In this document: positions 1 through 34,614 of the stretch, one piece after another
Numbering within the stretch: position 1 is the stretch's first letter
Layout: the number at the start of each line of letters is the position of its first letter
From: an uncultured Acidobacteriota bacterium
GTDB lineage: Bacteria > Acidobacteriota > Terriglobia > Terriglobales > Acidobacteriaceae
DNA: 40,000 nt
Direction: 5' to 3'
NCBI GenBank assembly: GCA_963715675.1
Contig: OY970265.1
Location: 2,822,677-2,862,676, forward strand
The notes under the pieces: generated by a model
Database searches by the model: none
Told to the model about the DNA's origin: nothing
Seen by the model: only the letters and a program-made list of their open reading frames with translations
Program-made: the position numbers and the translations under genes

Positions 1-453
1 GATGGAACCACACACACTCTAAATCCACCATCTTTATTGGAGATGCCGCAGACCTTCGAGATGGTTTTCTCGCAGCATGTCCGCCACCCCGAATACAAGA
101 GCCTCGCGCCCGATGGCACACTTTGCAGGGCCGATACCCAGGGATTGCTTGGGCGATACCCCGCCACCGCCACTGGTTTTCAATTTATCGGCAAGGAAAC
201 AGAGCATGGCTGGGAGCAGGCAGAAGACATCAGCACCTTAACACCGTCGCTCGTTCGTTACCAGCAGAACGCGGGCATGGCGAAACAAGCTCTGCGAGAG
301 CGTTTGCAGCAAATTTCTCTCAATACTTTGGAAAAACAAACCGGCCTGAGCAGGCACACCATCCTGCGAGCGCGACGTGGTGAGCGGGTACACCCGAGAT
401 CGTTGCAACTCCTCCGGGTTGCAAACCGAACGATTCCAACTCGGAAACGATAA
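1..453 (+). CDS. hypothetical protein, 5'-partial (open to window edge), C-terminal HTH-like segment
   Basis: Frame 1 is open from nt 1 (DGTTHTLNPPSLLEMPQ...), so the listed 37..453 ORF is only the tail of a longer gene. The C-terminus LEKQTGLSRHTILRARRGERVHPRSL resembles an XRE-like helix-turn-helix. No family recognised. Confidence 0.45.
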   Translation, partial: DGTTHTLNPPSLLEMPQTFEMVFSQHVRHPEYKSLAPDGTLCRADTQGLLGRYPATATGFQFIGKETEHGWEQAEDISTLTPSLVRYQQNAGMAKQALRERLQQISLNTLEKQTGLSRHTILRARRGERVHPRSLQLLRVANRTIPTRKR

Positions 454-466
454 TGATAGCCTCGGG

Positions 467-1096
467 TTAGGCCTTGGCCCGCCGCTGCTTAAATTTCTCG
501 AACTTGGGCCGGAGTTCGTAGAGAATCTCCAAGATCGCTTGCAGGAAGTCTAGCGCTCCCGTCGCATCAAAGTAATCTACTCGTTCGTTTGTTGCGTGCG
601 CACCAAGATTGCGAAGGACGCGCAGTTCGTTTGCCCAATCAAGGAGCTCTTGACTGATTAAGCCCTTGCTGTGCATGGACTTCAAGCCCTCAAAAACACT
701 TCTTGTCGAAGATTCAAACTCTTTGCCAACGGCTTCTAGCGTGCGCCCCACCATCACGACGCATGCCATCCACGTTTTGGCCGACTCACAGCGAACTGCT
801 TCCTCGTATGACTGGCGGACGATATCCGGCAAGTAATAGCCAATGTGACGCTCTTGAGCCGGATAGACGCGGTAATAACTATCTTTGTCGAAGCCGTCTC
901 CCATGTCTTCTCGAACAAAGACGGCGGGTTTTGCACAACTATCGCAATGCGCGAACGTGTACTCCTGTGGCGGTCCTTCGTCTGGAAGCTTATGTACCAT
1001 ATCCACAATCAAAGTCTGTGGCTGCTCACAGGAATAGCAGATTGCTACAATGTGGGCCGGCGATCTCTTCTCGGATTTTTGCTTGGGCTTCGGCAT
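467..1096 (-). CDS. zinc-ribbon + DUF4145-like (HEPN-type RNxxxH motif) protein
   Basis: 209-aa ORF. The N-terminus has two Cys pairs (CYSC ... CDSC). The C-terminal half follows the DUF4145 pattern, with LRVLRNLGAHATNE matching the Rx4-6H HEPN motif. It is on the same strand as, and 166 nt downstream of, the nucleotidyltransferase gene. Confidence 0.7.
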   Translation of the reverse strand: MPKPKQKSEKRSPAHIVAICYSCEQPQTLIVDMVHKLPDEGPPQEYTFAHCDSCAKPAVFVREDMGDGFDKDSYYRVYPAQERHIGYYLPDIVRQSYEEAVRCESAKTWMACVVMVGRTLEAVGKEFESSTRSVFEGLKSMHSKGLISQELLDWANELRVLRNLGAHATNERVDYFDATGALDFLQAILEILYELRPKFEKFKQRRAKA

Positions 1097-1262
1097 ATTA
1101 TCAAAAAGCGCTTACCTTTGTTCAGTCATCATACGCCGCTCCGTGAGATAATTCCGGGCCGGGAATTACTGCCCAAACCGCGCGGATTCCAAAAGGAGGC
1201 GTTTAAGCCGACATACCGCGCTGAGAGCACGACGCGGGGGAGCGGGCACACCCGAAGTCAAT

Positions 1263-1946
1263 TCAGATCCTTCGGAATGTCGCTGGGACAAACTTCAACT
1301 CCCGATACTGGGAATCCTCGATTCTAGTCGATAGATCGTTGGTGAACCCGCTGCTTGGAGAAGAAGGAATGAGTCGGCGGAGCCGATCATGCACTGCGTA
1401 CGGTGGTATTGAGATGCTGTCCCAGAACCTGTCGAGGATAACTGTAGGGGGGACGGGTTCCCCGCGCTCCATTAGTAGGAGACGCTGAGTTTCACGTCTT
1501 AACTTAATCGAGTACTTGACGCGAAAACATTCCTCCAACGTGAACCATGAGTTCGCCAGGGCCCTGAGAAACGCAACGATCCGGTGATGCTTGCTCGCAA
1601 CTGCCTCATGCCCTAGCTCAACCTTGCCAGACCATTGTGATGCCCCCTTTATCCACGTACCGTACTCCACAACATGAGAAGCTAGTTCACTCCCGAGCCA
1701 GAGCAAGCTATCAGTTGCGTCCGCCCGCATCACGGTCAAATCGAGTTCTTTCGTTTTTAGCCTAAAATTTTGGTCTCCGACACACAGGACGTCGATGTCC
1801 GAGTCAGGCCGCTGCAATCCAACAGACATTGAACCGAAGATTACAATCTCAAGCGACTCCTCGAAGTGCTTCACCCCGAAGGCCGTGGCACCAAGCCTCT
1901 CAACCACAATTTGGGCGAGGGAATCCCTATTTTGCATTCGAGTCAT
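1263..1946 (-). CDS. Pol-beta superfamily nucleotidyltransferase (MNT/KNTase-like) with helical C-terminal extension
   Basis: 227 aa. IVIFGSMSVGLQRPDSDIDVLCVG gives the GS...DxD signature, and a third acidic residue sits in ELDLTVM. About 120 aa of helical tail follow. The start codon overlaps the upstream stop (ATGA at 1943-1946). Confidence 0.75.
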   Translation of the reverse strand: MTRMQNRDSLAQIVVERLGATAFGVKHFEESLEIVIFGSMSVGLQRPDSDIDVLCVGDQNFRLKTKELDLTVMRADATDSLLWLGSELASHVVEYGTWIKGASQWSGKVELGHEAVASKHHRIVAFLRALANSWFTLEECFRVKYSIKLRRETQRLLLMERGEPVPPTVILDRFWDSISIPPYAVHDRLRRLIPSSPSSGFTNDLSTRIEDSQYRELKFVPATFRRI

Positions 1947-2455
1947 CCGTTATCGCTGCTATTCACGATCTCCTGAATTTCCAAGAACGTCTCGTGTGCT
2001 ATGCGCATATCCTCTGGGGCAATCCAGCCAAAATATCCTTTTATGTACTCCTCAAAGCTCTGTGCTTTAGCGGTAATTTCGTGATCCTGACCGAATAATC
2101 TCCTGAAAACATCCGCAAAGGATGGTTCTTTGCCCGACTTGCTTTTGCGAATGATATTTGCGCGGAGCAGGGTCGAAAGAAACTCATCAATTGCAACCTC
2201 AATTTCTTCTCGGTCATAACCATCGGTGTATTCACCCTCATCGAAATCTTCGTCGCCATATTCCTCTTCCGCTTCTACAGGTTCTACGGGTTCCACGGCT
2301 TCCTCGGCAACCACTGCTTTCTCCGTCGTTGGCGCTGCGCTCTTTTGTGCAAATCCTGAGTTTTCAAAATAACCCGTTATCTCTTCCAGTCCCTGGGCGA
2401 TTTCCTCAAGAACCCGCCTGCTTGGACGGCGCAATGCTGTTGATTGTTTAGCCAT
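1943..2455 (-). CDS. hypothetical protein with strongly acidic central tract
   Basis: 170-aa ORF. It contains the acidic run EAEEEYGDEDFDEGEYTDGYDREEIE. There is an 8-nt overlap with the upstream gene (ATGGCTAA, 2448-2455) and a 4-nt overlap with the downstream NTase gene. No family recognised. Confidence 0.55.
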   Translation of the reverse strand: MAKQSTALRRPSRRVLEEIAQGLEEITGYFENSGFAQKSAAPTTEKAVVAEEAVEPVEPVEAEEEYGDEDFDEGEYTDGYDREEIEVAIDEFLSTLLRANIIRKSKSGKEPSFADVFRRLFGQDHEITAKAQSFEEYIKGYFGWIAPEDMRIAHETFLEIQEIVNSSDNG

Positions 2456-3116
2456 TGTTTATTTTGCCCAAAACCTGAATCACTCTGTCCCTGAACTCTC
2501 TCCACTGAGCGCGAATGGCGCGGTGGTGAGGCAACAAGGGGAGAATGGCTAAGAGAATGAGAAGAACATAAAATGCAACGTGTGCCTGCCTAAGAGAGTG
2601 CCATTTGTCTTCCCGTTCCTTTGACGGATCTCTCGGTTCGCGAGCTTCCGGGTTTCGGTCGAAAAATCCTTTGCGATGGCCCGCCAAAACCAGCTCATGC
2701 GCAGTATATGGAACTGGAAACGCTCTGCAGACCTCCTGCCCTTTGCCTCGACTGATTTTCTTGAAAGCATCTTCAAGCCGTCCTGCTCGATTGCCAAACA
2801 GTCTGCTCCACCTCACCTGCTCATGCTCCAGAAGAAAAAAGAAGACCAGCATCAACACAAGCCCCAAACTGATGGTGCAAACAGTAGACAGTCCCTTGCC
2901 GCTGCCTGCTGCCGAAGCCGCAATCACGGCAGTTATTGACCACCCTTTGATGGTGAATCTAAACGCGCCAATTTTGTCTATTTTGTCTTGCAAAAGTTTG
3001 TACTCATCCCACAAACGCGACTTGAAGTCCTCCTCGTCGTATAGAACCTTCGTCGAATCGCGCACCTGCGCGGTCGCACTCTGATTTTGGTCGGGTTTAA
3101 CTGGCTCTATCATCAT
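2448..3116 (-). CDS. predicted 3-TM membrane protein (TM hairpin + distal TM)
   Basis: 222 aa. Hydrophobic segments are WSITAVIAASAAG, LSTVCTISLGLVLMLVFFFLL and VAFYVLLILLAILPLLP. An amphipathic helix lies N-terminal to the TM hairpin. This is the first gene of the overlapping three-gene set. Confidence 0.6.
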   Translation of the reverse strand: MMIEPVKPDQNQSATAQVRDSTKVLYDEEDFKSRLWDEYKLLQDKIDKIGAFRFTIKGWSITAVIAASAAGSGKGLSTVCTISLGLVLMLVFFFLLEHEQVRWSRLFGNRAGRLEDAFKKISRGKGQEVCRAFPVPYTAHELVLAGHRKGFFDRNPEAREPRDPSKEREDKWHSLRQAHVAFYVLLILLAILPLLPHHRAIRAQWREFRDRVIQVLGKINNG

Positions 3117-3190
3117 TAAGGAGTTGAGGGTACTAGAGCTATTCGTTTCATTCGAAGCCAGGCGTTCCTTGTGTCTTGTAAAACTCTCGG

Positions 3191-3835
3191 CTAGTGGTCT
3201 GAACCCTTCCAGCCGGGAGGGAACGTAACCTCATACCTATGCCGGTCATCAAAAAGAGAGAACCCATTCAGCCCAATCAAATCCTTCGTCAAGTACTCCG
3301 CCACAGCTTGCAGATACGTGCTTTGCTCTTCGTCTGTAGGATCATTTTTGAGAACATGTTTCAGATTTGCCTTCAACTTGATAGTGATTTGAGCGGTGTG
3401 TTTTGCGGGAATATAAACTGGGGTATCAAGGTCGGCGAATCTGTCAACGGGTCCGAGGGAGCCTAAATCACCCAGGATGAAGGCTAAATGAACGTCTTTA
3501 GAGCCGTCGATTCGATAATCTTCGTTCGTTGTATTTTCCAGGAAATACATGAACTCAATTGTGTTCTTATCGTGGCTGTTCCCGATTTTATTGTACGTTG
3601 CTTTTAGCTGATCCTTCCTCCATGGCTTGGGCGGTGAGGGGCGACCTTCGTACCACGTGAGAGTGAGCGCACCGATGACTACTGCAAGAATTGCGGCGAC
3701 ACCCACACCAAAACCCGCTGCCCTAAGGAAGATTCTTCTCCACGTAGGCATAATGTTAGCCACCACATAAACAGGTCTGTACGCCAGTGCCCATTGTAAC
3801 TCGCTAGGACGCTTATCTTCGTCAGCACATGACAT
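3191..3835 (-). CDS. single-pass membrane-anchored hypothetical protein
   Basis: The ORF has one TM segment (AAGFGVGVAAILAVVIGALTL) followed by a ~150-aa soluble domain. The ORF-track start (3859) lies inside the 36-bp repeat, so an internal ATG at 3835 or 3751 is more likely. Confidence 0.5.
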   Translation of the reverse strand: MSCADEDKRPSELQWALAYRPVYVVANIMPTWRRIFLRAAGFGVGVAAILAVVIGALTLTWYEGRPSPPKPWRKDQLKATYNKIGNSHDKNTIEFMYFLENTTNEDYRIDGSKDVHLAFILGDLGSLGPVDRFADLDTPVYIPAKHTAQITIKLKANLKHVLKNDPTDEEQSTYLQAVAEYLTKDLIGLNGFSLFDDRHRYEVTFPPGWKGSDH

Positions 3836-3842
3836 TCGCTCA

Positions 3843-3878
3843 GGGGGTGCATATTCCATCCCGTCGTATTCTCACCCC
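3843..3878. repeat. terminal-inverted-repeat copy in right-end orientation, proposed right end of a neighbouring element
   Basis: GGGGGTGCATATTCCATCCCGTCGTATTCTCACCCC is the exact reverse complement (36/36) of 3893-3928. It matches 14464-14498 with 2 mismatches. Confidence 0.75.
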
Positions 3879-3892
3879 GGCAAACCACCGGA
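3879..3892. repeat. 14-bp direct repeat GGCAAACCACCGGA (candidate target-site duplication, copy 1)
   Basis: Identical 14-mer at 14499-14512. In both places it directly abuts the outer end of a TIR. Confidence 0.7.
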
Positions 3893-3928
3893 GGGGTGAG
3901 AATACGACGGGATGGAATATGCACCCCC
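3893..3928. repeat. left terminal inverted repeat of the casposon-like element
   Basis: GGGGTGAGAATACGACGGGATGGAATATGCACCCCC. Its reverse complement matches 14464-14498 (CGTCG vs CATTG, plus one extra terminal G). Confidence 0.75.
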
Positions 3929-3974
3929 GGTACGGCGTTGGTGAACTGGGATCAAAGCAGGTGTGGTGAGACAA

Positions 3975-5690
3975 TTATCCTAAATGAAGCACCTCGACGC
4001 GGTCGGCACGACGTCGACCATCTGGGATGACCCTTCCTTCAAGCTTCACCTCTAGGCCTTCCTTCAGTTTGGACCACGCATTGGAAGGAATCACGCTTGT
4101 CTTATGAAAGAACCAGTCCTGGCCTTCACAATCTCTGATGAAGCCGTATGGCATTGATGGAGGAAGACTCTTGATTGTTCCATAGATCGGCGCGGCAGCC
4201 GCGCCAGGGAGAGCGTGAGGTTCGGCCCACCGCAAATCCAATCGCTTTGCTTGGGAAACAGGAAGAGAATCCTCTCCAAAACACTTTGCGAACATCTCAT
4301 AGCTCAGCATGCGGAACTGGGTACATGTCGCAACGTGCTCAGCATCCGAAAGTGCCTGCAACATCTCGATCGCATACGGCTCGTCTCTACAAGACATCGC
4401 GAACGCAAGCCCATCCTCAATTATATTTGTATATAAGGAACCCATCCTCGAATCAAAATCGTTCGCGCCAAATGCGGCTTCAAGGATATGGCGACCCCTC
4501 TCAAGGTGTTTTTTCAACAGTTCACCATCGTTCATTATCCTGTCCTGCTCCGCCCAGCGTCTGTAACACTCGGCAGCTTGATCCTGAGTTGTGATCCTCC
4601 ATTTCCGGGGTCTGGTGCATATGTTTATCAACATGCGCTCATATATTTCAGCAGCTTCTTTACACCGCCCGAGCCTGGTTAGCGCGAGAGCTCGGAGGGT
4701 CTCCAATGTCTCGTCGCCAGGATCTAAGGTCAACGTTTTATCCAGTTGGTTCAACGCTTGTTGTGAATCTTCCATGTCGTACAACATGAAACACGCTTTT
4801 TGATAGTGCGCGATTGCAGATTTCGAATCGTACTCTATTGCAGAATCTAATTGTTCGGCTGCCTTATATAGATCTCCTTTTTGGCTCTCAATCAGTGCAC
4901 CGACCCGGTATGCTTCTGAATAAACTGGCAGCAAAGCTTTTGCCTTGTCGACCCTGTCACTGGCATCTTCCAATTTGCCTGCTCGCAGCAAATCCAGTGC
5001 TTGTTTCAGGTAACTGGTACAAATGCGCTCATCTCGTGTATTCGCTCGGACTGCATATAAGTCATACTTGTATATTGCTTGCTGAACGGCAGACTTCTCC
5101 ACCATCTCCCGCAGTCGCTTGAGAGCAAGCTGTACTTTCTCGAAAAACTTTCGCTCGGGAGGAGCAAAGCGAGCTATGTATTCAGAAGCGACATCCGTCA
5201 GCGTAATCTGGCTTGTCGCATCGGTGCCTCTTAGGTCGGGCACCGTTCGTTTGAGCATACTGGAGTTGTGCAAAGTACTAAGTGTAGCTTCAAGTGCAAA
5301 CTGATCTGTCTTGCCAATCTGCTGGATGAGAAACATCAGCTCCGTAACGGTAAGTGCACGACGTGTTATAGCCAAGACATGGAGTATTTCCTTTTCTGCA
5401 TCGGTTAATCGCGAAAAAAGGTTTTCAAAACAATATCGGAGCGCTGTTTCAAACGCTTGACCACTCTTCGATATGGTTCGATCAGGATCTGCTCCGGATG
5501 CGACACTTTGCACAAACCACTTTATTAGAAGTGGGTTCTTGTGCAGCAATGTGCAATAGTTCTCCAAACGTGCTGGAGAAGCCGAGCTAAGCATCTCCAC
5601 GTTTAACGATTTTGCAAAGCGTCTAGGAGCTGTGAGACTTCCTGGGTCACATCGCGGACTTTCAATCGTGCTGCGATCAACATAGGCCAC
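3975..5690 (-). CDS. STAND-type protein lacking its NTPase domain: winged-helix + TPR array + C-terminal cold-shock domain
   Basis: The N-terminus has the GxP-like segment LHKNPLLIKWF followed by the WH-like LTDAEKEILHVLAITRRALTVTEL. The middle holds TPR-like repeats (YRVGALIESQKGDLYKAAEQLDSAIEYD...). The C-terminus YGFIRDCEGQDWFFHKTSV fits the cold-shock-domain pattern. There is no P-loop. The listed start is a GTG, and an internal ATG (MLSSASP) lies near 5595. Confidence 0.55.
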   Translation of the reverse strand: MAYVDRSTIESPRCDPGSLTAPRRFAKSLNVEMLSSASPARLENYCTLLHKNPLLIKWFVQSVASGADPDRTISKSGQAFETALRYCFENLFSRLTDAEKEILHVLAITRRALTVTELMFLIQQIGKTDQFALEATLSTLHNSSMLKRTVPDLRGTDATSQITLTDVASEYIARFAPPERKFFEKVQLALKRLREMVEKSAVQQAIYKYDLYAVRANTRDERICTSYLKQALDLLRAGKLEDASDRVDKAKALLPVYSEAYRVGALIESQKGDLYKAAEQLDSAIEYDSKSAIAHYQKACFMLYDMEDSQQALNQLDKTLTLDPGDETLETLRALALTRLGRCKEAAEIYERMLINICTRPRKWRITTQDQAAECYRRWAEQDRIMNDGELLKKHLERGRHILEAAFGANDFDSRMGSLYTNIIEDGLAFAMSCRDEPYAIEMLQALSDAEHVATCTQFRMLSYEMFAKCFGEDSLPVSQAKRLDLRWAEPHALPGAAAAPIYGTIKSLPPSMPYGFIRDCEGQDWFFHKTSVIPSNAWSKLKEGLEVKLEGRVIPDGRRRADRVEVLHLG

Positions 5691-6836
5691 AACTTCAGCA
5701 ATGTGTTGACGGTGGGGTATTGGCTAGTGAAATCGGTGTAGACCACTGGGATGGGTGTGTGCCGGATACGAATCTCGGCCCGGCCTCCATAGTATGCCTG
5801 CATACAAATGCCAAGCGTTTCGTCATCGAGTTTGGAATTTTTGTTCAGGTGGAACCACCCCCATATTGCCGAGAAACGCTTTTGCGATTGAAGCGGCAGA
5901 GTAAGCCCTCTCTGGCGGAAGATTGCCGAGCGGGTAGCGCCGAAACTCGATCAGCAGCGCGTTCAGCAAACCAACGGTTGCACAGACATCCTGGCGGCAA
6001 TAATCGATCTCGTCACGTGTCACCGTTCCGCTTGGGGTGTAACCCCCCTTTTTTCCAGGAACCTTAAACTCGTGGCACGCCGTATCAAGGCTGAGGCTGC
6101 GATTTCGGAGAGCCCAGACCAACGTCTTCAGGTCCAAGAACCTTCCCAAGCGGTACGGCTGATTCATGTCCCCGCTTGCCAACCGGATGAATGCGGCCTT
6201 CGAATCCTTGGGCCTGAGCTGAATGCGGGGGCGGAAACTGTTTGGCCGCCAGTTGCCATTTTTCTTATCGCGGTACCTGAAGACTATGAAGCTCCACCCT
6301 CGCCCGCCCGCTCCGCGCGCAACGCGATATTCGACAGCAATACGCGACAAATCAAAAGGAAGGTTGAAAGCAACGATGATCGCTTCCGCTTGGATGGCCG
6401 TGTACATCACTTTTTCAACGAACGCGGCACGGTTGTAAAGCTTCAGCTTGCGGTCTGGCTTCTTGGCACCCTGTCGATTGGCACTCGTGACATACGCGCG
6501 AAGGAGGTCGAGTTGACTGGCGTCTAGGTCATCGGCGTGAAACAGTCCCTCCTCCTGGCAATGGTAATAGCCGTGTGAATCTTTTTCACAGAACTGGTAA
6601 GCCCCAAAGTTTAGACTCAGCCGCGCATCGGTGGTGGTCTCCGTATCCACCACTAGCACGTGTTTCGCGAACGGTGACTTTCTTCTAGAACTGTGCCCCT
6701 TGTTCGCAGTGTCTTCCACAATTCGAGTGTGGCATCGCAAATAGAGTTCGTGATCCATCCATTTCTCCGTGATTGCTCCGAACCGAATCCCCTCGGGGTG
6801 CCGAGGGGACAATCGATTCGTAGCGACTCGTTGCAC
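5603..6836 (-). pseudogene. family-B DNA polymerase remnant (3'-5' exonuclease domain + motif A only; frameshifted and 3'-truncated)
   Basis: Exo I is VVDTETT, Exo II is VAFNLPFDLSRI and Exo III is DYCRQDV, all in ORF 5823..6836. The next frame (5603..5803, open from 5844) reads KLDDETLGICMQAYYGGRAEIRIRHTPIPVVYTDFTSQYPT, which matches motif A (DxxSLYPS). The two frames can only join within 5826-5844, which contains an A5 run. No KxxxNSxYG or YxDTDS motif occurs in any frame downstream. Confidence 0.7.
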
Positions 6837-6841
6837 ACCGC

Positions 6842-7189
6842 CTATTGCTGTTTGGGGTTGATAGCCAAGCTTGGGACGATCTCTCCAGTTTGCGGATTGC
6901 GAACCGAGATGACCTCCAGCTTGATCTTTTTGCCGATTACCCTCTTTTCATCCTCTCCAAACAGCCGGATCAGCGCTTTCATGTTGGTTTTATTCACCGC
7001 CCAGGCTGATTTGCCCTGGACAGGTTTCTTTAGGTCGACGATGGCGGGAGCACTGAATCCCTCAGGGGATTCGCGAATGTCCGCCACTACTATCGTGAGC
7101 GATTTGGTTCCGGCTGGAATGTCCGAACCGTTGAGCAGCGCTCCGGCTTGGCCGGTGCTGCGGCTATCTAGCATCGTTCTCAGACTCAT
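6842..7189 (-). CDS. hypothetical small protein (115 aa)
   Basis: The ORF is packed between the HNH gene (26-nt overlap) and the polymerase gene (5-nt gap), which suggests an operon. No family recognised. Confidence 0.5.
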   Translation of the reverse strand: MSLRTMLDSRSTGQAGALLNGSDIPAGTKSLTIVVADIRESPEGFSAPAIVDLKKPVQGKSAWAVNKTNMKALIRLFGEDEKRVIGKKIKLEVISVRNPQTGEIVPSLAINPKQQ

Positions 7190-7580
7190 TGTTTTGCTCC
7201 TTTTTATGGGGTGATTCCCCGAAACTCTTTGCCACTGAATTCAGCCGTTCACTTGCCCTTGTTGGTGACTTCAACGATTCCGCCCAACGCCACAGTGCCT
7301 CGGCCAGCATCCACAGAAAAACGGCGGTAGCTTTCAGTGCTCTTCTCACTCGCTCCTCGGAACTTGGTGCGCGTCGCATGTCCACATCCGCCCGCCGCAG
7401 GTTTTCGGTTGCTTGCGCGTGGCAAGCTGGGCAAAGAGGAGCAGTCAACTCCGCGTCGTGATTTCTTCCGGCGACGTGGTGTTGCTCGATCCCTGTCTTG
7501 CGCCCGCATTGAAGGCAGCGATTCTGCTCGGCTCTTCTGGCAACCCTACGGGCTGTCTGGATCGGAGTGTGATCAATCAT
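7164..7580 (-). CDS. HNH-type zinc-finger nuclease-like protein
   Basis: CLQCGRKTGIEQHHVAGRNHDAELTAPLCPACHA fits the CxxC...HH...N...CxxCH HNH layout. The start overlaps the upstream stop (ATGA at 7577-7580). Confidence 0.65.
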   Translation of the reverse strand: MIDHTPIQTARRVARRAEQNRCLQCGRKTGIEQHHVAGRNHDAELTAPLCPACHAQATENLRRADVDMRRAPSSEERVRRALKATAVFLWMLAEALWRWAESLKSPTRASERLNSVAKSFGESPHKKEQNNESENDAR

Positions 7581-8053
7581 GACGACGACTCCGGCAGGGC
7601 ATAGATTTGATCGAGTTGGAGCGCGCCCGCTTGGGCGAGCGAACTCAACTGTTCAGGATCGGTAATGAGGAAATGGCCCGCGATGGACTGTCCTGCAAAT
7701 TCTTCAAGCGCGTCGGTCTCGCCGGTTCGCAGGTACTTGCCGACAGCCGACATATAGCGGCCAAGCTGCGATGCTTCCGTTGATCCGTGGATTACAACCG
7801 GAGTGGCACCGCGCGAAGTGGGAACCAGCATGTCCCGGCGTCGCCGGTCAGCTTTGGTTGGCAGGGTGCGTCCTTGCTTTGCCAATCCCCTAAGTTCCGC
7901 ACCCAGATACTTTCGGACAGTGCGAGGATCGATGTGTTCTTCACGCGCAGCAGCGGTTAGGCTCACGTCTGTTCGGCGCATGCGTGCCAGCACATGCAGA
8001 GCCCGATTGTACGTCTCCGCCTTTTTCCCTCGCTTCCGATTGCCGTTTGACAT
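7577..8053 (-). CDS. HTH DNA-binding protein
   Basis: ATG at 8053 (MSNGNRKRGKK) is preceded by AGGAGA. The HTH-like segment is SLTAAAREEHIDPRTVRKYLG. This is the first gene of the minus-strand HTH-HNH-115aa-PolB operon. Confidence 0.55.
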   Translation of the reverse strand: MSNGNRKRGKKAETYNRALHVLARMRRTDVSLTAAAREEHIDPRTVRKYLGAELRGLAKQGRTLPTKADRRRRDMLVPTSRGATPVVIHGSTEASQLGRYMSAVGKYLRTGETDALEEFAGQSIAGHFLITDPEQLSSLAQAGALQLDQIYALPESSS

Positions 8054-8150
8054 GCAATTATTCTCCTGCACCCTGGTTGATGCTTGATTTAAGCACAAGA
8101 TATAAAACGGTTTAGATGGTACAGCTGAGCACAGTGTCTATTTATATGGC

Positions 8151-8197
8151 AATAGCTTAAAATAGCAGCATACATATGTGGCTATTAGTGGTATAAT
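8151..8197 (+). promoter_or_regulatory. candidate promoter/operator in the divergent AT-rich intergenic region
   Basis: TGGTATAAT at 8189-8197 is an extended -10. The hexamer AATAGC occurs at 8151-8156 and 8161-8166 (10 bp apart), and its inverse GCTATT occurs at 8181-8186. Confidence 0.3.
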
Positions 8198-9203
8198 TGA
8201 ATTGAATAATATGGCGGAAAATATTTCGTTCTTCGCTACTGAAAAACCAAAACTCGGGCGGGGTCGACGAACGGAAATCCAGGACGAGATCCTCTGGGGT
8301 GTTCGAGATTCGTTACTCGGGATTCTTGAAGCCACTTGGATGGACGTGGGTGACAAACTTCCGCAAATAAAAACGCCTGCTGATGTACTCGCCGCCTTGG
8401 GGATATGGGAGAGGGACAATTTTCACAATCGACAGTACGTGACACAGATTTTGCTAAGGCCATCCTCCAGCCCAGCGACAAGCAAGTCGTTGAACGATAA
8501 ACGCCGTCGATGTCGTGCTTTGAATGAGTCCGCTCAAAGTGCACATGAGTCTATGGAGAAATGTTACAGGTCCTTCGAACCCGCGCTACGAATCTCCACC
8601 ACGCAATATTCCGAGAGCGAGCGAGAGGTTATTGACGAGAAAATCAGGGAACGCGCCAGAGCGCTCGCGCACGCGGGGGCAGAGTACATCGCTATCAAAG
8701 CTCGACAAAAAGATATGGACCGGGAATTACAGGATTGCGAAGCTCACTTTGCACGCGCCGAATTCGTAAGATTTTGCAGGAATAATCGCTACCGGTTGAC
8801 TACTCTGCATACAGCAAACGCTCTCGCCGGGTTGCCGTATATGGGCTGGAGACGATCTATCCAGAGATGCAGGACTGAGAAACCTGCAAGTTCAAACGGT
8901 GGTACGATTCAGGTTTTTAACACCATAAAGCGCATTGTCCAGTCCTGTCCTAGAAAATCTGGTTTGATCAAGCACGCCGAAAAGTATCTGAGGAATCCGG
9001 TTCGTGTTGGCTCCAATTCGTACGGGGTCTCCGAACTGCAACAAAAGTGGTTCTACCTGCGATGGTCCATCAAAACTGTGTTGGAAACAGGCATGCGCAC
9101 GCGCGATTTGCCCTTCGCGATTGCAAGGGAGTATGACAAACGCAAGAATCACCCTTCTAACGTGGACTTACTTTTTGAAGGGGAAGAACGCATTGTGAGT
9201 TGA
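8178..9203 (+). CDS. hypothetical protein (about 330-341 aa) immediately upstream of the Cas1-like gene
   Basis: Long ORF. The listed start is a GTG at 8178, and ATG at 8211 (MAENISFF) is an alternative. It ends 45 nt before the likely Cas1 ATG. No recognisable domain. Confidence 0.55.
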   Translation: MAISGIIELNNMAENISFFATEKPKLGRGRRTEIQDEILWGVRDSLLGILEATWMDVGDKLPQIKTPADVLAALGIWERDNFHNRQYVTQILLRPSSSPATSKSLNDKRRRCRALNESAQSAHESMEKCYRSFEPALRISTTQYSESEREVIDEKIRERARALAHAGAEYIAIKARQKDMDRELQDCEAHFARAEFVRFCRNNRYRLTTLHTANALAGLPYMGWRRSIQRCRTEKPASSNGGTIQVFNTIKRIVQSCPRKSGLIKHAEKYLRNPVRVGSNSYGVSELQQKWFYLRWSIKTVLETGMRTRDLPFAIAREYDKRKNHPSNVDLLFEGEERIVS

Positions 9204-9247
9204 AGCCCTCTCCCGAGTTGCTCCAATTGTGGAATACGGAGGAATCA

Positions 9248-10813
9248 ATGAACACGAGCAAAGTGTCGATTTCAGATATCGATCCAGGGCGACAGGGAGT
9301 CGTTACTCTGTCTGGGTACGGGATTCATGTCGGAGTTGACCGGGGTCACCTGCTTTTGGAAGACGGAATCGCTGCCGATCGCCACCGGGCCAGATTCCCG
9401 CGAGTAGGACATGGGCTCAAACGTCTGGTGGTCATCGGCTCGGACGGGATGGTGTCCCTCGCAGCACTCCGCTGGCTCGCCGATCAAGATGTTGCTTTCG
9501 CAATGTTAGAACGCAATGGCAAGACACTGTGTGTCACCGGTCCAGTTGGATCGTCTACTGCAAAATTGAGACGCGCTCAAGGTCTAGCCATCAGTAATGG
9601 TGTGGGGCTTGAAATCTGCCACAAACTGATCGACGCCAAACTACAAGGCCAAGAAAAAGTTCTACGGGAACGTCTGAATTGCCAGCCGACGGCGGACGCA
9701 ATCGCTCGCTTTCGGAACAAGCTAGGTTCGGCAGAGAGTTTTGACGCGATCCGTAATCTCGAAGCGAACGCGGCCTCTGCGTATTTTCGTGAGTGGCGAG
9801 ATCTTCCGGTGACCTGGCCGAAGGGTGATCTGCAACGAATCCCAGCACACTGGCGATCTGCGGGGAGTAGGCAATCTCCTCTTAGTGGCGGACCTCGCCT
9901 CGCCGTGACGCCTGTTCATGCCATCCTAAATTACTGCTTTGCCTTGGTTGAAGCCGAAACTAGACTAGCCCTCTCTGCGTTAGGTCTCGATTCGGGCTTG
10001 GGGGTAGGTCTGCACGCGGACACTGCCGATCGTGACTCTCTCGCTCTCGATGTTCTCGAACCCGTACGCCCCCAGATTGAGACGTGGTTACTTGATTGGG
10101 TTGCGAGGGAACCATTGCGCAGGGCCGATTTCTTCGAAACTGCGACCGGCAATTGTCGCCTCATGTCCCAGATATGCACCAAGCTGGGCGGGACCGCTCC
10201 AGTCTGGGGAAAGCTGGTTGCGCCGTGGGCTGAATACGTGGCCCGAACTCTCTGGACTGGAGCAAAATCTGGACGCACTCACAATTCAGTTCTTCCGACA
10301 CGTCTCACCCAGCAGCGACGTACGGAAGCCAAGGGCAAGGTCTGGATAACCGCCATTGAACCGCCAAAGACGGATCATCTCTGTCGCGGGTGTGGAAAGA
10401 CCGTCCAAACTGAGAGTACGAACTGTGGCGAGTGTGCCATTGGCGGAGCGACGGAACGCCTGATCAGCGCTGCGAAACTTGGCCGCGTGGCTGCACGGAG
10501 CCCGGAAGCTCGTGCCAAACATGTGGCCTCGCGGCGGCGGCACGCAGAGGCATGCTCGGCCTGGGACGCATCGACGCAACCAGCTTGGCTTACCAGCGAA
10601 GTGTTCACGCAACAAATACAGCCGCTGCTCGAAAAAGTCACCACGTCCGCTATTTGCTCACGAATTGGTGTCTCGCGTTGGTACGCAGGCCGAATTCGGC
10701 AAGGCTATCTGCCGCATCCGAGGCATTGGCAGGCGCTGGCGGATTTGGCTGGGAAGACCAATCCCCTCTTCCCACACGCTCCGCTATGCAGTAGCCTTGA
10801 GAGTCCTCTGTAA
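9248..10813 (+). CDS. cas1: Cas1-family integrase (casposase-like) with C-terminal zinc ribbon and HTH; 3' end replaced by IS3 insertion
   Basis: ATG at 9248 follows GGAGGA. Cas1-like blocks are GYGIHVGVDRGHLLLEDG, LKRLVVIGSDGMVSLAALRWLADQDVAFAML, KLRRAQ, IDAKLQGQEKVL, NLEANAASAYF (Glu), PVHAILNYCFALVEAE and GLGVGLHAD..DRDSLALDVLEPVRPQIE (His, Asp/Glu). A zinc ribbon CRGCG...CGEC and an HTH ICSRIGVSRWYAGRIRQG follow. The stop codon TAA (10811-10813) lies inside the IS3 left inverted repeat. Confidence 0.75.
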   Translation: MNTSKVSISDIDPGRQGVVTLSGYGIHVGVDRGHLLLEDGIAADRHRARFPRVGHGLKRLVVIGSDGMVSLAALRWLADQDVAFAMLERNGKTLCVTGPVGSSTAKLRRAQGLAISNGVGLEICHKLIDAKLQGQEKVLRERLNCQPTADAIARFRNKLGSAESFDAIRNLEANAASAYFREWRDLPVTWPKGDLQRIPAHWRSAGSRQSPLSGGPRLAVTPVHAILNYCFALVEAETRLALSALGLDSGLGVGLHADTADRDSLALDVLEPVRPQIETWLLDWVAREPLRRADFFETATGNCRLMSQICTKLGGTAPVWGKLVAPWAEYVARTLWTGAKSGRTHNSVLPTRLTQQRRTEAKGKVWITAIEPPKTDHLCRGCGKTVQTESTNCGECAIGGATERLISAAKLGRVAARSPEARAKHVASRRRHAEACSAWDASTQPAWLTSEVFTQQIQPLLEKVTTSAICSRIGVSRWYAGRIRQGYLPHPRHWQALADLAGKTNPLFPHAPLCSSLESPL

Positions 10814-10876
10814 TGCACCCCTGTGAAACTGGACAGGATCATAAGGTATGATTCAGGGCCTCCGCCAGGAGGCGAG

Positions 10877-11167
10877 ATGCCAAGAAAAGCGCAAGTGCAG
10901 AGAAGTGCCGAAGAGAAGTTTGCCATCGTGATCGAGGGTCTGAAGAGCGGCAACATTGCTGAGACCTGTCGCACCCACCAGATCGCCGCCACGCTCTATT
11001 ACCGCTGGAAAGAGGAAGCCGAAAAAGCGGCGGTAGCCGCGTTGGGCGGGAAAGCCGCTGCGCCCCATGGCGGCGAGGAACAGCGCAAGCGCATCCGCGA
11101 ACTGGAGCGCAGCCTGGGCAAGGCCCACGTGCAGATCGACATACTAAAAAACGTTCTGGGCGAATGA
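10877..11167 (+). CDS. IS3-family transposase OrfA (HTH)
   Basis: ATG at 10877 follows AGGAGG. The protein MPRKAQVQRSAEEKFAIV...YYRWKEE has a leucine-zipper-like tail. It is typical of IS3 OrfA. Confidence 0.85.
   Translation: MPRKAQVQRSAEEKFAIVIEGLKSGNIAETCRTHQIAATLYYRWKEEAEKAAVAALGGKAAAPHGGEEQRKRIRELERSLGKAHVQIDILKNVLGE
11146..11152 (+). other. programmed -1 ribosomal frameshift heptamer A AAA AAC
   Basis: In the orfA frame the sequence reads CT[A AAA AAC] GTT. The -1 frame continues K K R S G R M S C G Q, which is the orfB frame. Confidence 0.6.
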
Positions 11168-12048
11168 GCTGTGGCCAGGTTCATTCGCAAGCCCACCAGT
11201 TGGTGGCCGCAGGACAAACCGCCCAACTGGTGGCGGAGACCTTGGAGATCAGCCGCTCCAGTCTGTATTATCGCCGGCAGGCACGCAGGTCGCGCGCCGA
11301 TCGCCGCTACGACGAACGCATCGTCGAGGTCTGCGGCGAAAAGCCAGTGTATGGCTATCGCCGGGTGCAATGGTGGCTGGAACAGGTGAGTGGGTTGAAG
11401 CTGAACCGCAAGCGGGTATTGCGCGTGATGCGCGAACGCGGCCTGCTGGTACGCAGCCGCCGTCTCCGGGTGACGCGCAGAAAAGACTGGAGCACGGTGA
11501 ACGTCTCGCGACCGGACCAGGTGTGGCAGATGGACATGACCAAGGTGTGGGCCGGTCCTGCGACCGGCTGGGCGTATCTGGTCTCGGCGCTGGACTGCTG
11601 CACCCGCGAAATCGTGGGCTGGGACTTGAGCCTGCGCTGCCGCACCCAGGACGCTCTGGCCGCGCTCCACCGCGCCCTGCGAGAGGTTTTGCCTTGCGAT
11701 CCTAGTAGAAAGGGTTTGACTTTGACGACCGACAACGGCACCCAGTTCACCAGTGCCCGCTTCATCGCTACCCTGGGGCAGCTCGGCATCACTCATCGCC
11801 GAACCGCCTACAACCATCCCGAAGGCAACGGACGTATCGAGCGTTTCCACCGCTCGCTCAAGGAAGAGGAGGTTTGGCTCAACGAATACCAGTCGCTCGA
11901 TCAGGCCCGCGATTCCATCGCCCGCTGGATCCACCAGTACAATCATCAGCGGCCTCATCAGTCACTCAAGAACCGAACGCCCGCCGCGACCCGGCTGGTG
12001 CTCACTCAACCGCAACCCCTAACTTATATCGAGGCCCTTTGTGTCTAG
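11164..12048 (+). CDS. IS3-family transposase OrfB (DDE/rve integrase core)
   Basis: The DDE residues fall in WQMDMTKV (D), LTTDNGTQFTS (D) and PEGNGRIERFHRSLKEE (E). The ATGA overlap with orfA is present. Confidence 0.9.
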   Translation: MSCGQVHSQAHQLVAAGQTAQLVAETLEISRSSLYYRRQARRSRADRRYDERIVEVCGEKPVYGYRRVQWWLEQVSGLKLNRKRVLRVMRERGLLVRSRRLRVTRRKDWSTVNVSRPDQVWQMDMTKVWAGPATGWAYLVSALDCCTREIVGWDLSLRCRTQDALAALHRALREVLPCDPSRKGLTLTTDNGTQFTSARFIATLGQLGITHRRTAYNHPEGNGRIERFHRSLKEEEVWLNEYQSLDQARDSIARWIHQYNHQRPHQSLKNRTPAATRLVLTQPQPLTYIEALCV

Positions 12049-12067
12049 TTTAGGAGGGTGCATTACA

Positions 12068-12647
12068 GATCGTAATCATCGATTTGTCTCAGGGAAACCC
12101 AGAAATTCAAACGCTATATTCAGAGCGCATATGTCGGCATATCTTCACGGATGCGATGGCGCGGTTCATTACGAACAAGCCGAACAACTTCGTGCAATTC
12201 TACTTTGAAGAGGCCCACAATCTGTTCCCCAAAAAGGAAGACAAGGACCTCAGCCAAATTTACAATCGGCTCGCAAAAGAAGGAGCCAAGCTAAATCTCG
12301 GGTTGATATACGCAACCCAAGAGGTCTCCTCAATTAGTTCAAATATCCTGAAGAACACGCAAAACTGGTTCATCGCTCATTTGAACAATGAGGATGAAAC
12401 GAAAGAAATAAAAAAGTGGCCAATCACCCCAGTTCTAGAATTCTTCAGAAGTTTGCCAAGCAAACGGTCGTGGGTACCCCCTGATGATCTCCACAAGAGA
12501 ACGACCGGTGCAACTTTCGTATTCTACAGAGAGCGGTCGGATGTATTGTGGGTTGGCAGAGCGTTTTCTGTCGTCCGAAATTGCAAGCAGGTATCGCGGG
12601 AAGGTTCAACTTCTCTTCACCTCGCCCCCGTTTCCGCTAAATCGTAA
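12068..12647 (+). pseudogene. HerA/FtsK-superfamily (DUF87-like) ATPase, C-terminal fragment truncated by the IS3
   Basis: The reading frame is open from the first base after the IS (QIVIIDLSQGNPE...). It has the Walker-B-like FYFEEAHNLFP, then LAKEGAKLNLGLIYATQEVSSISSNILKNTQNWFIAHLNNEDE. No Walker A is present. The 3' tail overlaps the methyltransferase ORF and may be out of frame. Confidence 0.6.
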
Positions 12648-13425
12648 AAAGAAGTATGGAAATCTGACCGGTCCCGAGTATCAGGAATGGCTTGCCGCCT
12701 TTGGGCCGTCTTTTCGCAAGATGCTAGCTCCTGGTGGTTCCATTGTCTTGGAGCTCGGCAACGCATGGGAACCAGGCAGACCGATAATGTCGACGCTGGC
12801 TCTTGAGGCCTTGCTGGCGTTTAGAGCGAAAGGGAATCTCCGACTGGTCCAACAATTCGTGGCCCACAATCCAGCCCGCCTCCCCAGCCCAGCTCAATGG
12901 GTTAACGTGGAGCGCATACGAGTGAAGGATTCCTTTACGCATCTGTGGTGGCTTGCGCCGTCCGACAGACCCTACGCTGATAATCGGTCTGTGCTCCAAG
13001 CGTATAGCGACTCCATGAAAGAGCTCCTTAGGTCCCGCCACTACAATTCAGGTAAGCGCCCGTCAGGGCACAAGGTTGGCAAAGAATCTTTTCTCCGAGA
13101 CAACGGCGGTTCAATTCCATCAAATGTTCTTAATTTCTCCAACACTTCGTCGGCAGATGTCTATCAGGAGTATTGTCGTCGGAAAGAGCTAAAACCCCAC
13201 CCTGCAAGAATGCAAATCGGTGTGGCAGAGTTTTTCATCAAATTCCTTACTCGAAGGGGCGACGTTGTTTTCGATCCCTTCGCGGGCAGCAACACCACAG
13301 GGGCGGCTGCTGAGGCGTTGGGACGGAAGTGGATTTCAGTGGAAGCGAATCTCGATTACATCAAGAGCTCGCGGGGACGGTTTAGTGGATGCGAGAGCCG
13401 CGTTCAGCCGGGAAAACACACATGA
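12484..13425 (+). CDS. beta-class DNA methyltransferase (motif IV TSPPF; probable N4-cytosine or N6-adenine)
   Basis: Motif IV is LLFTSPPF near the N-terminus and motif I is VVFDPFAGSNTTGAAAEALGRKWISVE near the C-terminus, the beta-group IV-TRD-I order. SPPF/SPPY is typical of m4C enzymes such as M.PvuII. The start could be the internal ATG near 12541 (MYCGLAERF). Confidence 0.8.
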   Translation: MISTRERPVQLSYSTESGRMYCGLAERFLSSEIASRYRGKVQLLFTSPPFPLNRKKKYGNLTGPEYQEWLAAFGPSFRKMLAPGGSIVLELGNAWEPGRPIMSTLALEALLAFRAKGNLRLVQQFVAHNPARLPSPAQWVNVERIRVKDSFTHLWWLAPSDRPYADNRSVLQAYSDSMKELLRSRHYNSGKRPSGHKVGKESFLRDNGGSIPSNVLNFSNTSSADVYQEYCRRKELKPHPARMQIGVAEFFIKFLTRRGDVVFDPFAGSNTTGAAAEALGRKWISVEANLDYIKSSRGRFSGCESRVQPGKHT

Positions 13426-13470
13426 ATCAGATGGGGTTGCGCCAGCTGTGCCTAGGGTAGACCGGGAGCT

Positions 13471-13818
13471 ATGATTGCTCGCATTTACATTGCCGGACCG
13501 TACACAAACGGGGACGTTGCCGTCAACGTTCGAAATGCGTACGAAGCAGCAAACCGGCTTGCAGACTTAGGCTTCGCACCATTCGTGCCGCACGCGACTC
13601 ATTTCTGGCACATGCTTTTTCCCCGTCCATACAAGTTTTGGCTCGAATTAGATAATCAGTTTCTACCATGCTGTGCGGCGGTTCTTCGTCTGCCCGGACC
13701 TTCGAAAGGTGCCGACGCGGAAGTCCAACTTGCGAAGAATCTTGGAATTCCGGTTTTCGAGGACATCGACAAATTAGTTGAGTTTTTCCGAAGCACCACA
13801 GCTAAGGAAAGGACCTGA
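13471..13818 (+). CDS. DUF4406 / nucleoside 2-deoxyribosyltransferase-like small protein
   Basis: 115 aa. The N-terminal IYIAGPYTNGD...N...A and a later SKGADAEVQLA segment fit the DUF4406-like pattern. This is a memory-based assignment. Confidence 0.5.
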   Translation: MIARIYIAGPYTNGDVAVNVRNAYEAANRLADLGFAPFVPHATHFWHMLFPRPYKFWLELDNQFLPCCAAVLRLPGPSKGADAEVQLAKNLGIPVFEDIDKLVEFFRSTTAKERT

Positions 13819-13821
13819 CGT

Positions 13822-14442
13822 ATGAGCATCGAGCCGGACAAGGCGATCGAGCGATCTGTCGACCATGTTCAGAGAATCTATGCTGTAATTATCGCTCTCG
13901 CGATTTCCCAGGCGATTCAGAGCCTTTTGAAGAACCCTAATGACACGATCGGGGAGCTGAATCTCGCGCATATACCTGCTGGACTGCCAGCCTTTATAGC
14001 TTTCTTAGTAACTCTCGTACCCTTCTGGCAAGGGATGAATCGCCACCTTGATCGTTGTTATCTAGAGAAGAAAACAGTCGTTGTGCAGCGCGCTCTCCTG
14101 CTCGACTTCGCGGTTTTCTTTGTGGAGGCCATCTTCCTCTTCGGGGCAGGATGGTCGATCAAATCGGATATCAACACATTTTACTGGCTTGGTGGGTTGC
14201 TTTGCGTTGACATGATTTGGGCCATAGTCTCTCATTACATCCATTTTCCGGGAACAAAATCGCACGCGCTGAAATGGTCCGCTATTAACGTGTGCGCAAT
14301 AGTCATTGCCATCTTGGTGGTCGAGTTTCCCTTTCAGCACAAGCAATTCGTCCTGACGGTAATAGCAGTCGGGAGGACAATAGCGGACTACGTGTTTTCA
14401 GGAGGCTTTTATTTTCCCAGCCCCCCAGTCGTAAGCCGCTAG
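13822..14442 (+). CDS. polytopic membrane protein, unknown function
   Basis: 206 aa with about 5-6 hydrophobic helices (IYAVIIALAISQAI, LPAFIAFLVTLVPFW, LLLDFAVFFVEAIFLFGAGW, WLGGLLCVDMIWAIV, AINVCAIVIAILVV...). It starts 4 nt after the preceding stop. Confidence 0.55.
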   Translation: MSIEPDKAIERSVDHVQRIYAVIIALAISQAIQSLLKNPNDTIGELNLAHIPAGLPAFIAFLVTLVPFWQGMNRHLDRCYLEKKTVVVQRALLLDFAVFFVEAIFLFGAGWSIKSDINTFYWLGGLLCVDMIWAIVSHYIHFPGTKSHALKWSAINVCAIVIAILVVEFPFQHKQFVLTVIAVGRTIADYVFSGGFYFPSPPVVSR

Positions 14443-14463
14443 TCTTGGCGGTGCGGTTGTTCA

Positions 14464-14498
14464 GGGGTGCATATTCCATCCCATTGTATTCTCACCCC
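14464..14498. repeat. right terminal inverted repeat of the casposon-like element
   Basis: GGGGTGCATATTCCATCCCATTGTATTCTCACCCC, compared with 3843-3878 and 3893-3928. Confidence 0.75.
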
Positions 14499-14512
14499 GG
14501 CAAACCACCGGA
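14499..14512. repeat. 14-bp direct repeat GGCAAACCACCGGA (candidate target-site duplication, copy 2)
   Basis: Identical to 3879-3892. The next two bases (GG) also match, so the duplication could be read as 14-16 bp. Confidence 0.7.
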
Positions 14513-14808
14513 GGCGCCGTTCTAAGATGGCCAGGCTCAACCAATATCTGGTCCCAAAATCTTTTCCCAGTGGTGCGAACCTGCCCCAGGCGTATACACT
14601 GGGTGCGTCGTTGGGAGTCAAGGAGATTCGTGTTTAGGGCAGTTTGAGGTGCTGGGGAATAAGTTTTGAAGCAGTTTGGTAGCAACCATGGATTTGCTCT
14701 TTCCACAGTGATCCGGCAAATTGCTCCCACTACGTCGCCAAATTCCTCTTCCAAGTCAACCCGACCCTGAAGGTCAACTCTAGTCATTCCAAAGCGGAGG
14801 ATACACAA

Positions 14809-34492: not shown

Positions 34493-34509
34493 TCCGTACC
34501 TTTTGAGGT

Positions 34510-34614
34510 GATATACCCCCTCCCCACCGGTCTAGTGGAATCATCAGGTTACGGACATTTTCCCGGCAAAATCTAGATTCGATTGGGGTTATAGGCAAAA
34601 TCTAGAAAAGACAG
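34510..34614 (+). repeat. ~107-bp dispersed repeat, copy 2, directly abutting the IS481 right end
   Basis: See 19782-19888. It contains two internal sub-repeats of the form GGTTA..GG(C)AAAATCTAGA. Confidence 0.7.

Follow-up and report, generated by a model that had tools for sequence, protein, structure and literature searches.

We examined a perfect 86-nt palindrome at positions 3843-3928 of a 40,000-nt stretch of the chromosome of a soil acidobacterium (hereafter the window, genome positions 2822677-2862676; the genome is one closed contig of 5,249,395 bp), and found that it is very probably the joint of two different casposons, A and B, that were inserted successively into one intergenic chromosomal target upstream of valS. 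Casposons are the presumed ancestors of the adaptation machinery of CRISPR, and knowledge of them comes mostly from a few dozen, mainly archaeal, elements. The palindrome is a side effect of the single type of terminal inverted repeat (TIR) that A and B share, and not a designed structure: because both elements use the same 36-bp end, the right end of A and the left end of B form a perfect inverted repeat around a 14-mer, which is the target site duplication (TSD).

The palindrome and the two elements it joins

The perfect TIR-14-mer-TIR arrangement reported in a first-pass annotation of the window was confirmed, as positions 3843-3878 (GGGGGTGCATATTCCATCCCGTCGTATTCTCACCCC) and 3893-3928 are reverse complements at 36/36 positions around the spacer GGCAAACCACCGGA (3879-3892), with complementarity ending exactly at both arm ends. 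The likeness that it had noted between the left arm and the right end at 14464-14512 was also borne out, since 14464-14514 repeats the left arm plus the 14-mer with 49/51 identity. The 36-mer TIR has four copies in the whole 5.25-Mb genome (up to 8 mismatches allowed), and each is an element end, i.e., the left end of A (genome 2807458-2807493, - strand, exact), the right end of A (genome 2826519; window 3843-3878, + strand, exact), which forms the left palindrome arm and is identical to the left TIR of A, the left end of B (genome 2826569; window 3893-3928, - strand, exact), which forms the right arm, and the right end of B (genome 2837139; window 14463-14498, + strand), which has 3 mismatches and is thus 33/36 identical to the other three copies. 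Exact copies of GGCAAACCACCGGA were found three times in a whole-genome search (genome 2807444, 2826555, and 2837175; window -15232, 3879, and 14499), compared with about 0.04 expected by chance, and every one of them abuts a TIR, so the proposal that the 14-mer is a shared duplication holds. The middle copy (3879-3892, +, exact) is common to A and B, and the third (14499-14512, +, exact) is the promoter-distal one.

The order on the chromosome, upstream of valS, is therefore TSD, A (19,097 bp), TSD, B (10,606 bp), TSD, with a single 14-mer copy separating the two elements and the same 14-mer on both outer flanks. The TSD boundary at the valS site is ambiguous (14-18 bp), because two more flanking bases on each side match, and the length of 14 was adopted from sister sites. 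Casposon A as a whole occupies genome 2807458-2826554 (window -15218 to 3878) between TIRs that are 36/36 identical and flanked by TSDs, in agreement with the earlier suggestion that a second element covers at least 1-3878; the window contains its right-hand 3.9 kb (1-3878), which hold the C-terminal end of its family B DNA polymerase (PolB) and cargo genes. An inverted TIR preceded by GGCAAACCACCGGA, looked for within about 20 kb upstream as the annotation had advised, lies at window -15232 to -15183 with both parts exact, and the second Cas1/PolB gene set is carried by A as well, in the form of a 516-aa Cas1 (L001:12134-13684, -; PF01867, E = 3.5e-40) and a PolB gene split by an insertion sequence (IS). 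Casposon B as a whole spans window 3893-14498. Among the Logan contigs, which were retrieved via exact-protein look-ups, the separately assembled L047 (run ERR11594402) shows the right TIR of B, the 14-mer, and the flank, and this run is possibly not independent of the genome's own data.

The 86-mer has a folding energy of -47.3 kcal/mol (z = -13.7) as single-stranded DNA. That it could extrude a hairpin or cruciform had been proposed, and the stable fold bears this out. The potential is real, but it looks incidental and is without support as a function: comparable junctions elsewhere connect TIRs of different types and do not form palindromes.

All four defining features of casposons are present, namely Cas1, PolB, TIRs, and the 14-bp duplication, with PolB being defective in both A and B. 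The Cas1 casposase of B (9200-10813, +; PF01867, E = 1.6e-31) probably starts at the ATG at 9248, and among solved structures Cas1 is closest to the casposase 6OPM of Methanosarcina mazei (E = 4.1e-18). The catalytic residues E188, H272, D284, and E287 are invariant among five paralogs, and the Cas1 domain is followed by a CxxC...CxxC segment and then by a conserved C-terminal domain (a zinc-ribbon and helix-turn-helix (HTH)-like region). The only reference casposase compared was PDB 6OPM, and neither the weak PF03175 matches of PolB (see below) nor the C-terminal zinc-ribbon/HTH-like region assigns Cas1 and PolB to one of casposon families 1-4. The scanned open reading frames (ORFs) of A and B included neither cas2 nor any further cas gene, in a survey in which CRISPR repeats were not specifically searched for. 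The genome contains six full-length Cas1 genes of the casposase kind (one C-terminally shortened) and a small fragment, and a 14-bp TSD also flanks other complete elements, exact except at G005 (13/14).

Because their Cas1 proteins are 69% identical, their cargo differs, and their cores are inverted, A and B are distinct elements and not a segmental duplication. The common 5.2-kb Cas1-PolB core runs in opposite directions in the two (A 7624-12844 vs B 6917-1717), which makes the earlier description of the pair as head-to-tail wrong by gene order; the HerA/methylase module, in turn, has direct orientation in A vs B. Among nine Cas1-bearing elements compared (a hand count), Cas1 points away from the downstream gene in 7 and towards it in 2, and with identical ends a casposon is without intrinsic polarity for the integrase. 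A 2.4-kb block (window 5609-8053; L001:14855-17301), inverted in A relative to B, has 95% identity between the two, compared with 70-88% in the rest of the core. It holds the N-terminal part of PolB, with apparently the same frameshift after about 337 codons in both elements, and it ends where an IS630-like element sits in A; A and B cease to be homologous at B 1717 (window 5609), after which a TPR/cold-shock gene follows in B. These sequence patterns suggest that A and B exchanged sequence, putatively by gene conversion between neighbours. Gene conversion was also considered as the cause of the perfect palindrome arms and is unneeded there, as G014 e2, from a relative described below, shows that the A-type TIR is the older one and that the right TIR of B has changed.

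The polymerase could not be identified by Pfam alone: the scan found no PolB in A or B, with PF00136 matching nothing in the whole genome and PF03175 remaining below threshold, and a profile and a fold search were needed. The sister elements C, D, and E encode an intact 965-1010-aa PolB protein, and the C-terminal PolB part of A is 31-40% identical over 552-594 aa to these proteins and to a 785-aa piece in element G. In an alignment to Pol alpha, the profile of this family shows motif B (K..ANSxYG) as well as motif C (DTDS), and its consensus, read by eye and not tool-scored, contains candidate Exo I (FDTET), Exo II (N..FD), Exo III (Y...D), and motif A (DFTSEYP) sequences. A Foldseek search with an AlphaFold model returned family B polymerases as all of its top 50 matches (best E = 1e-10); the model itself is mediocre (predicted local distance difference test score, pLDDT, 57.9), and we used the unanimity of the matches and not their template modelling (TM) scores. 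More than 1,700 relatives were found at E <= 1e-10, of which the named ones are all "hypothetical" and from Terriglobales metagenome-assembled genomes, and most others are environmental sequence. Judged by profile and predicted fold, the core protein of about 1000 aa is a very divergent family B polymerase.

In A, PolB is in two pieces, N-terminal (a 337-aa ORF plus a shifted piece) and C-terminal (554 aa), with the 1.1-kb IS630-like element (A 12821-13921; L001:17278-18378) between them; the C-terminal ORF begins 1.2 kb upstream of the window, and its last 150 codons lie at 1-453 (+). In B, comparison with C, D, and E by blastp/tblastn delimited an N-terminal remnant of about 375 of about 1000 residues (5576-6836, -; a 337-aa ORF at 5823-6836 plus a shifted piece), which is 97% identical to the N-terminal part in A. 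Because both PolB genes are defective, the current mobility of A and B is doubtful, and the two elements would depend on a polymerase supplied in trans, if they are still mobile at all.

Related casposons and the target site

Seven casposon elements are carried by this genome at three sites, two of which are arrays. In the second array (genome 2401838-2452526; L025, L026, L027), five exact copies of CCGCCCGGTTTGAC bound four elements, F, G, C, and D; F (2.8 kb) is without Cas1, and each of the four has its own TIR type, every TIR beginning with GGG. Element E (genome 2685679-2700961; L028) is single, 15.3 kb long, with 36-nt TIRs that match at 34/36 positions and the TSD GTCACCGTCGGAGT; it encodes an intact PolB of 965 aa and a Cas1 that is shortened beside an IS3 copy, and the gene downstream of it is RpoD-like. 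Outside this genome, three exact copies of GTCAAACGGATCAC bound two elements in G014 (C27:205634-227454; L038, L039), which belongs to a different genus of the same taxonomic family, and this pair is located at the orthologous valS-upstream position. Its distal unit (5.3 kb) is without Cas1 and has nothing in common with A and B except the TIR (32-33/36). The junctions in the second array and in the G014 pair join unlike TIRs and are not palindromic. Altogether, four genomes or contigs have insertions at the valS-upstream site, and the 14-mer is a different one in each; since the 14-mers differ between genomes and are identical within each, these insertions were independent and took place after the site had diverged, an indirect sign of mobility. 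End sequences vary between sister elements, as the Cas1 of D is 68% identical to that of A and yet the TIR of D differs; the A/B TIR was not found at the Cas1 loci of relatives with up to 9 mismatches allowed, and five metagenome contigs carry an A/B-type TIR, none of them as a tandem joint.

The 14-mers at all nine distinct sites start with G(T/G)CA when oriented and, in the direction of the downstream gene, finish with (T)TGAC or TTGCC. Three of these sites, with the 14-mers GTCAAGCCGAAAAC, GTCAAACGAACAGG, and GTCAAACGAAGGAG, came from metagenomes searched with a degenerate TIR pattern, and the last of them lies at another valS promoter. For the -35-like hexamer we took the final five bases of each 14-mer and the flank base that follows them, in the orientation of the downstream gene, and found at least 4/6 matches to TTGACA in the same register at 6/6 scored sites vs 3% of random genome positions, and a -10-like hexamer at a spacing of 16-18 in 5/6. 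The hexamers and spacings are TTGCCG-17-TAAGAT at the valS site of A and B (G000), TTGACC-18-TAAGAT at valS in G014, TTGACC-16-TGTAAT at valS in L021, TTGACA-18-TAGACT at the second array (nuoB-like), CTGACA-18-TAGACT at G005, and GTGACC-16-TTGCAT at element E (rpoD-like), where the -10 match is poor (3/6). The promoter scanner itself calls TTGACA-18-TAGACT at the second array, and GATCTTACAG, 15-16 nt from the 14-mer and conserved in G000 and G014, is the reverse complement of the -10 region. Downstream of the A/B site lies valS (940 aa); the second array is followed after 96 nt by a NuoB-like gene and E by an RpoD-like one, these two being named by eye from their translations.

Insertion spares the gene-proximal 14-mer and its flank, and hence the putative promoter. 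We infer that the target is a (T)TGAC motif, which would coincide with the valS promoter's -35 box, and that the flank on the promoter side serves as a "leader". An RNA gene as the target, of the tRNA type known from archaeal casposons, is ruled out, as no tRNA, tmRNA, or Rfam family was found in the window or the upstream locus. A 173-aa ORF (14461-14982, -) was considered as the 3' end of a target gene and rejected; the conserved gene there is that of a signal-peptide protein on the + strand (14809-15465). On a broader scale, and with more doubt than confidence, we propose that a large casposon family of soil Acidobacteriota may home to sigma-70-type promoters, with the TSD ending in the first five bases of the -35 box, the promoter kept, its side of the target serving as leader, newcomers placed promoter-proximally, and polar stacks growing up to four units, such that the A/B palindrome would be one joint in a bacterial model of pre-CRISPR leader-repeat logic.

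Insertion, order of arrival, and comparison with known casposons

Mechanistically, a Cas1 casposase would join the 3' ends of an element at staggered positions 14 bp apart, and gap repair would duplicate the 14-mer on both sides of the element. Every insertion would in this way regenerate the target, and a second element could enter one of the TSD copies, with the outcome TSD-A-TSD-B-TSD and the shared 14-mer alone between the elements. Published casposon work shows that casposases make staggered joins with 14-15 bp duplicated, that the functional target of the Aciduliprofundum boonei (A. boonei) enzyme is the TSD plus a flank on one side, from which polar tandem insertion was predicted (PMC5137440), that tandems form in vivo when a mini-casposon enters an existing TSD (PMC10359463), and that tandem casposons of Methanosarcina share one TSD (PMC4779613).

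On balance, A, the valS-proximal element, probably arrived after B. If the promoter-side flank is required, A would have entered second, because only the gene-proximal 14-mer keeps the original flank. B is the more decayed element, being shorter and having a truncated PolB, a HerA fragment, and a right TIR with three changes, which are derived by comparison with the G014 relative. The smallest element is the one farthest from the promoter in 3/3 arrays, and the TIRs of the distal element are less perfect in each array of two. The reversed order, in which A was resident and B afterwards entered its valS-distal 14-mer, is a rather unlikely alternative: it agrees with the identity of both 14-mer copies and with a Cas1 of B that looks as intact as that of A, and the flank requirement is here a presumed one, but it sits poorly with the decay of B, down to its right TIR (33/36), with the size and TIR patterns of the arrays, and with the A. 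boonei work, where the one-sided flank of the TSD was essential (PMC5137440).

Other origins of the palindrome were weighed against successive insertion. A tandem created by recombination, i.e., unequal exchange between chromosomes that had A or B at this site, or an assembly mis-join at the TIR, is improbable. TIR plus TSD form a 50-bp repeat that is present three times, the 2.4-kb block shared at 95% identity shows that sequence exchange took place between A and B, and a short-read Logan unitig breaks in the TIR at the palindrome; nevertheless, unequal exchange giving TIR-TSD-TIR would have had only the 14-mer as crossover homology, and experiments have shown that insertion can use a TSD already in place (PMC10359463). 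A mis-join is further contradicted by the genome being one closed 5.25-Mb contig, by the unique flanks of the palindrome and the exact end of complementarity at the TIR ends, and by the same architecture in the second array and in an independently assembled genome. Even less credit is due to the idea, raised in the first-pass annotation, that the left arm is a solo TIR left by a deleted element beside an intact B. The window by itself is compatible with it, as 1-3842 has no Cas1 match and the PolB remnant at 1-453 no Pfam match, but the complete element A upstream rules it out: an exact inverted TIR with an exact 14-mer lies 19.1 kb to the left, and between the two TIRs are a complete Cas1, the conserved small core ORFs, and both PolB parts. 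We give practically no weight to a dispersed palindromic repeat, such as a repetitive extragenic palindrome (REP) or one resembling a miniature inverted-repeat transposable element (MITE), or to a terminator hairpin unrelated to transposon ends. Such a structure would account for the very stable fold and for a site between convergent or abutting gene ends, but an ordinary REP, which the annotation had envisaged at many loci, does not fit an arm whose only four copies are all casposon ends, each lying at the exact end of a Cas1-bearing unit with the 14-mer alongside; in addition, there is no Rfam match, and the equivalent junctions in the two other arrays are not palindromic.

Several observations weigh against successive, promoter-directed insertion of A and B as we have described it. 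The PolB genes are defective in both elements. The promoter match at the valS site is weak, with TTGCCG-17-TAAGAT matching at 8/12 positions and remaining below the scanner threshold, and the (T)TGAC motif could reflect a preference of the casposase itself, its likeness to a -35 box being fortuitous. The order of arrival is drawn from decay alone, and TIR identity in the four-element array does not fall steadily from the promoter outwards (D 97%, C 100%, G ~86%, F 91%). Finally, an empty site was not found with a joined-flank query against 61 genomes of the taxonomic family, where it matched only the valS coding start, a dispersed REP-like repeat, and the right-flank gene of one congener, whose intergenic region is too diverged to read; as relatives offered no site that was empty or held one element alone, the two insertions are deduced and were not seen directly.

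Tandem casposon joints are a known kind of structure. The family 2 tandems of Methanosarcina (Met2HT1A3-C1/C2 and Met2HA1B4-C1/C2, Krupovic et al. 2016, PMC4779613; MetMaz-C1 in vivo tandem, PMC10359463) likewise consist of related but distinct Cas1/PolB elements with TIRs and one shared TSD between them, the polymerase is likewise inactivated in one or both, and the repeated use of a site implies sequence-specific targeting (PMC4779613). They differ in having methanogen hosts and a tRNA-Leu gene or archaeal intergenic target, whereas A and B reside in an acidobacterium (Terriglobia) at a promoter-like site upstream of valS; the acidobacterial PolB also remains below Pfam thresholds, the arrays reach four units, and the cores of A and B are mutually inverted. 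Casposon AciBoo-C1 of A. boonei (Béguin et al. 2016, 2019; PMC5137440, PMC6614799) similarly has a two-part target of TSD and one-sided "leader" flank, which predicts polar stacking, but its TSD is 15 bp and its flank the 3' end of a tRNA-Pro gene, compared with a 14-bp TSD for A and B, whose flank appears to consist of a promoter spacer with its -10 region. The bacterial casposons of family 3 (AceAut-C1, NitAL212-C1, and HenMar-C1; Krupovic et al. 2014, 2016; PMC4046053, PMC4779613) are likewise intergenic, with Cas1 fused to zinc- and DNA-binding domains, and carry HerA-like helicases and methyltransferases as A and B do. The only sequence-family hints for the acidobacterial PolB are to the protein-primed PF03175, which differs from the PolB type reported for family 3, and neither tandem arrays nor promoter targeting are reported in these papers (PMC4046053, PMC4779613). 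Tn7, an analogy drawn in the casposon papers themselves, also inserts site-specifically beside a housekeeping gene without disrupting it (attTn7, glmS) and forms tandem, partly inactivated copies, but it uses TnsABCD, which is unrelated to Cas1, makes a 5-bp duplication, and targets a site downstream of glmS and not a promoter.

What is new here is a bacterial family in which PolB is divergent, arrays contain up to four units, and the -35 box is apparently targeted; a literature search that did not cover subscription literature found no published description of casposons in Acidobacteriota. If promoter-box targeting and polar stacking are true, these elements would provide a bacterial system for studying how a Cas1 integrase picks and reuses a "leader-repeat" site, the step by which a transposon became an array builder. 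For genome annotation, TIR-14-mer-TIR joints are to be read as casposon junctions and not as regulatory hairpins.

Gene content of A and B and further repeats

In B, a TPR/BTAD/cold-shock-domain protein (3975-5690, -), which belongs to the cargo, occupies the place of the missing PolB remainder. Beyond the PolB remnant lie small ORFs of 115, 138, and 173 aa (6842-8098, -), which are all common to A; homologs of the 138- and 173-aa ORFs also occur in C, E, and G, and that of the 173-aa ORF in D too. Directly upstream of Cas1 is the gene of a 341-aa protein (8178-9203, +) with no Pfam or NCBIfam match, which has counterparts in A (L001:13705-14733, 53% identical) and E (24-25%), and from its position upstream of cas1 in all three elements this protein of about 340 aa could be a casposase partner. 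An IS3-family IS (10806-12070, +, with the outer coordinates taken from the first-pass annotation; HTH_Tnp_1 and rve; orfA 10823-11167, orfB 11164-12048) is located at the 3' end of cas1, and copies 100% identical to it are present in elements D and E. The IS630-like element in the PolB gene of A has eight near-identical genomic copies, and one is also found in element G. Both IS types look active, and they appear to have struck casposons repeatedly. The right arm of B contains, all on the + strand, a C-terminal HerA fragment (12084-12647), an N6/N4 DNA methyltransferase (12484-13425), a DUF4406/DUF7768 protein (13471-13818), and a 206-aa ORF (13822-14442).

The cargo block of A within the window (467-3859, all on the - strand) comprises a DUF4145 protein (467-1096) and an MNT-type nucleotidyltransferase (1263-1946), both assigned by Pfam, and unknown ORFs at 1943-2455, 2448-3116, and 3191-3859; these genes gave weak PADLOC candidate-family matches only. 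Upstream of the window, the cargo of A (L001:5454-12053) includes HerA-NurA beside a DNA methyltransferase and a Schlafen-type helicase with AbiO/Nhi-like PADLOC matches. Overall, the cargo of A, including the MNT nucleotidyltransferase and DUF4145 at window 467-2455, looks defence-related.

Two kinds of repeats were observed besides the casposon ends. The sequence GCTGAGTGCTGAATGCTGAGTGCT in the valS 5' region (L001:4380-4410) has dozens of matches in many genomes of the taxonomic family and looks like a dispersed repeat of the REP type, with no relation to the ends of the casposons. Further long inverted or direct repeats in the window (34448-34621, 19782-19896, and 33128-33172; e.g., the 115-nt arms 19782-19896/34501-34615 at 83% identity) point to further mobile elements.

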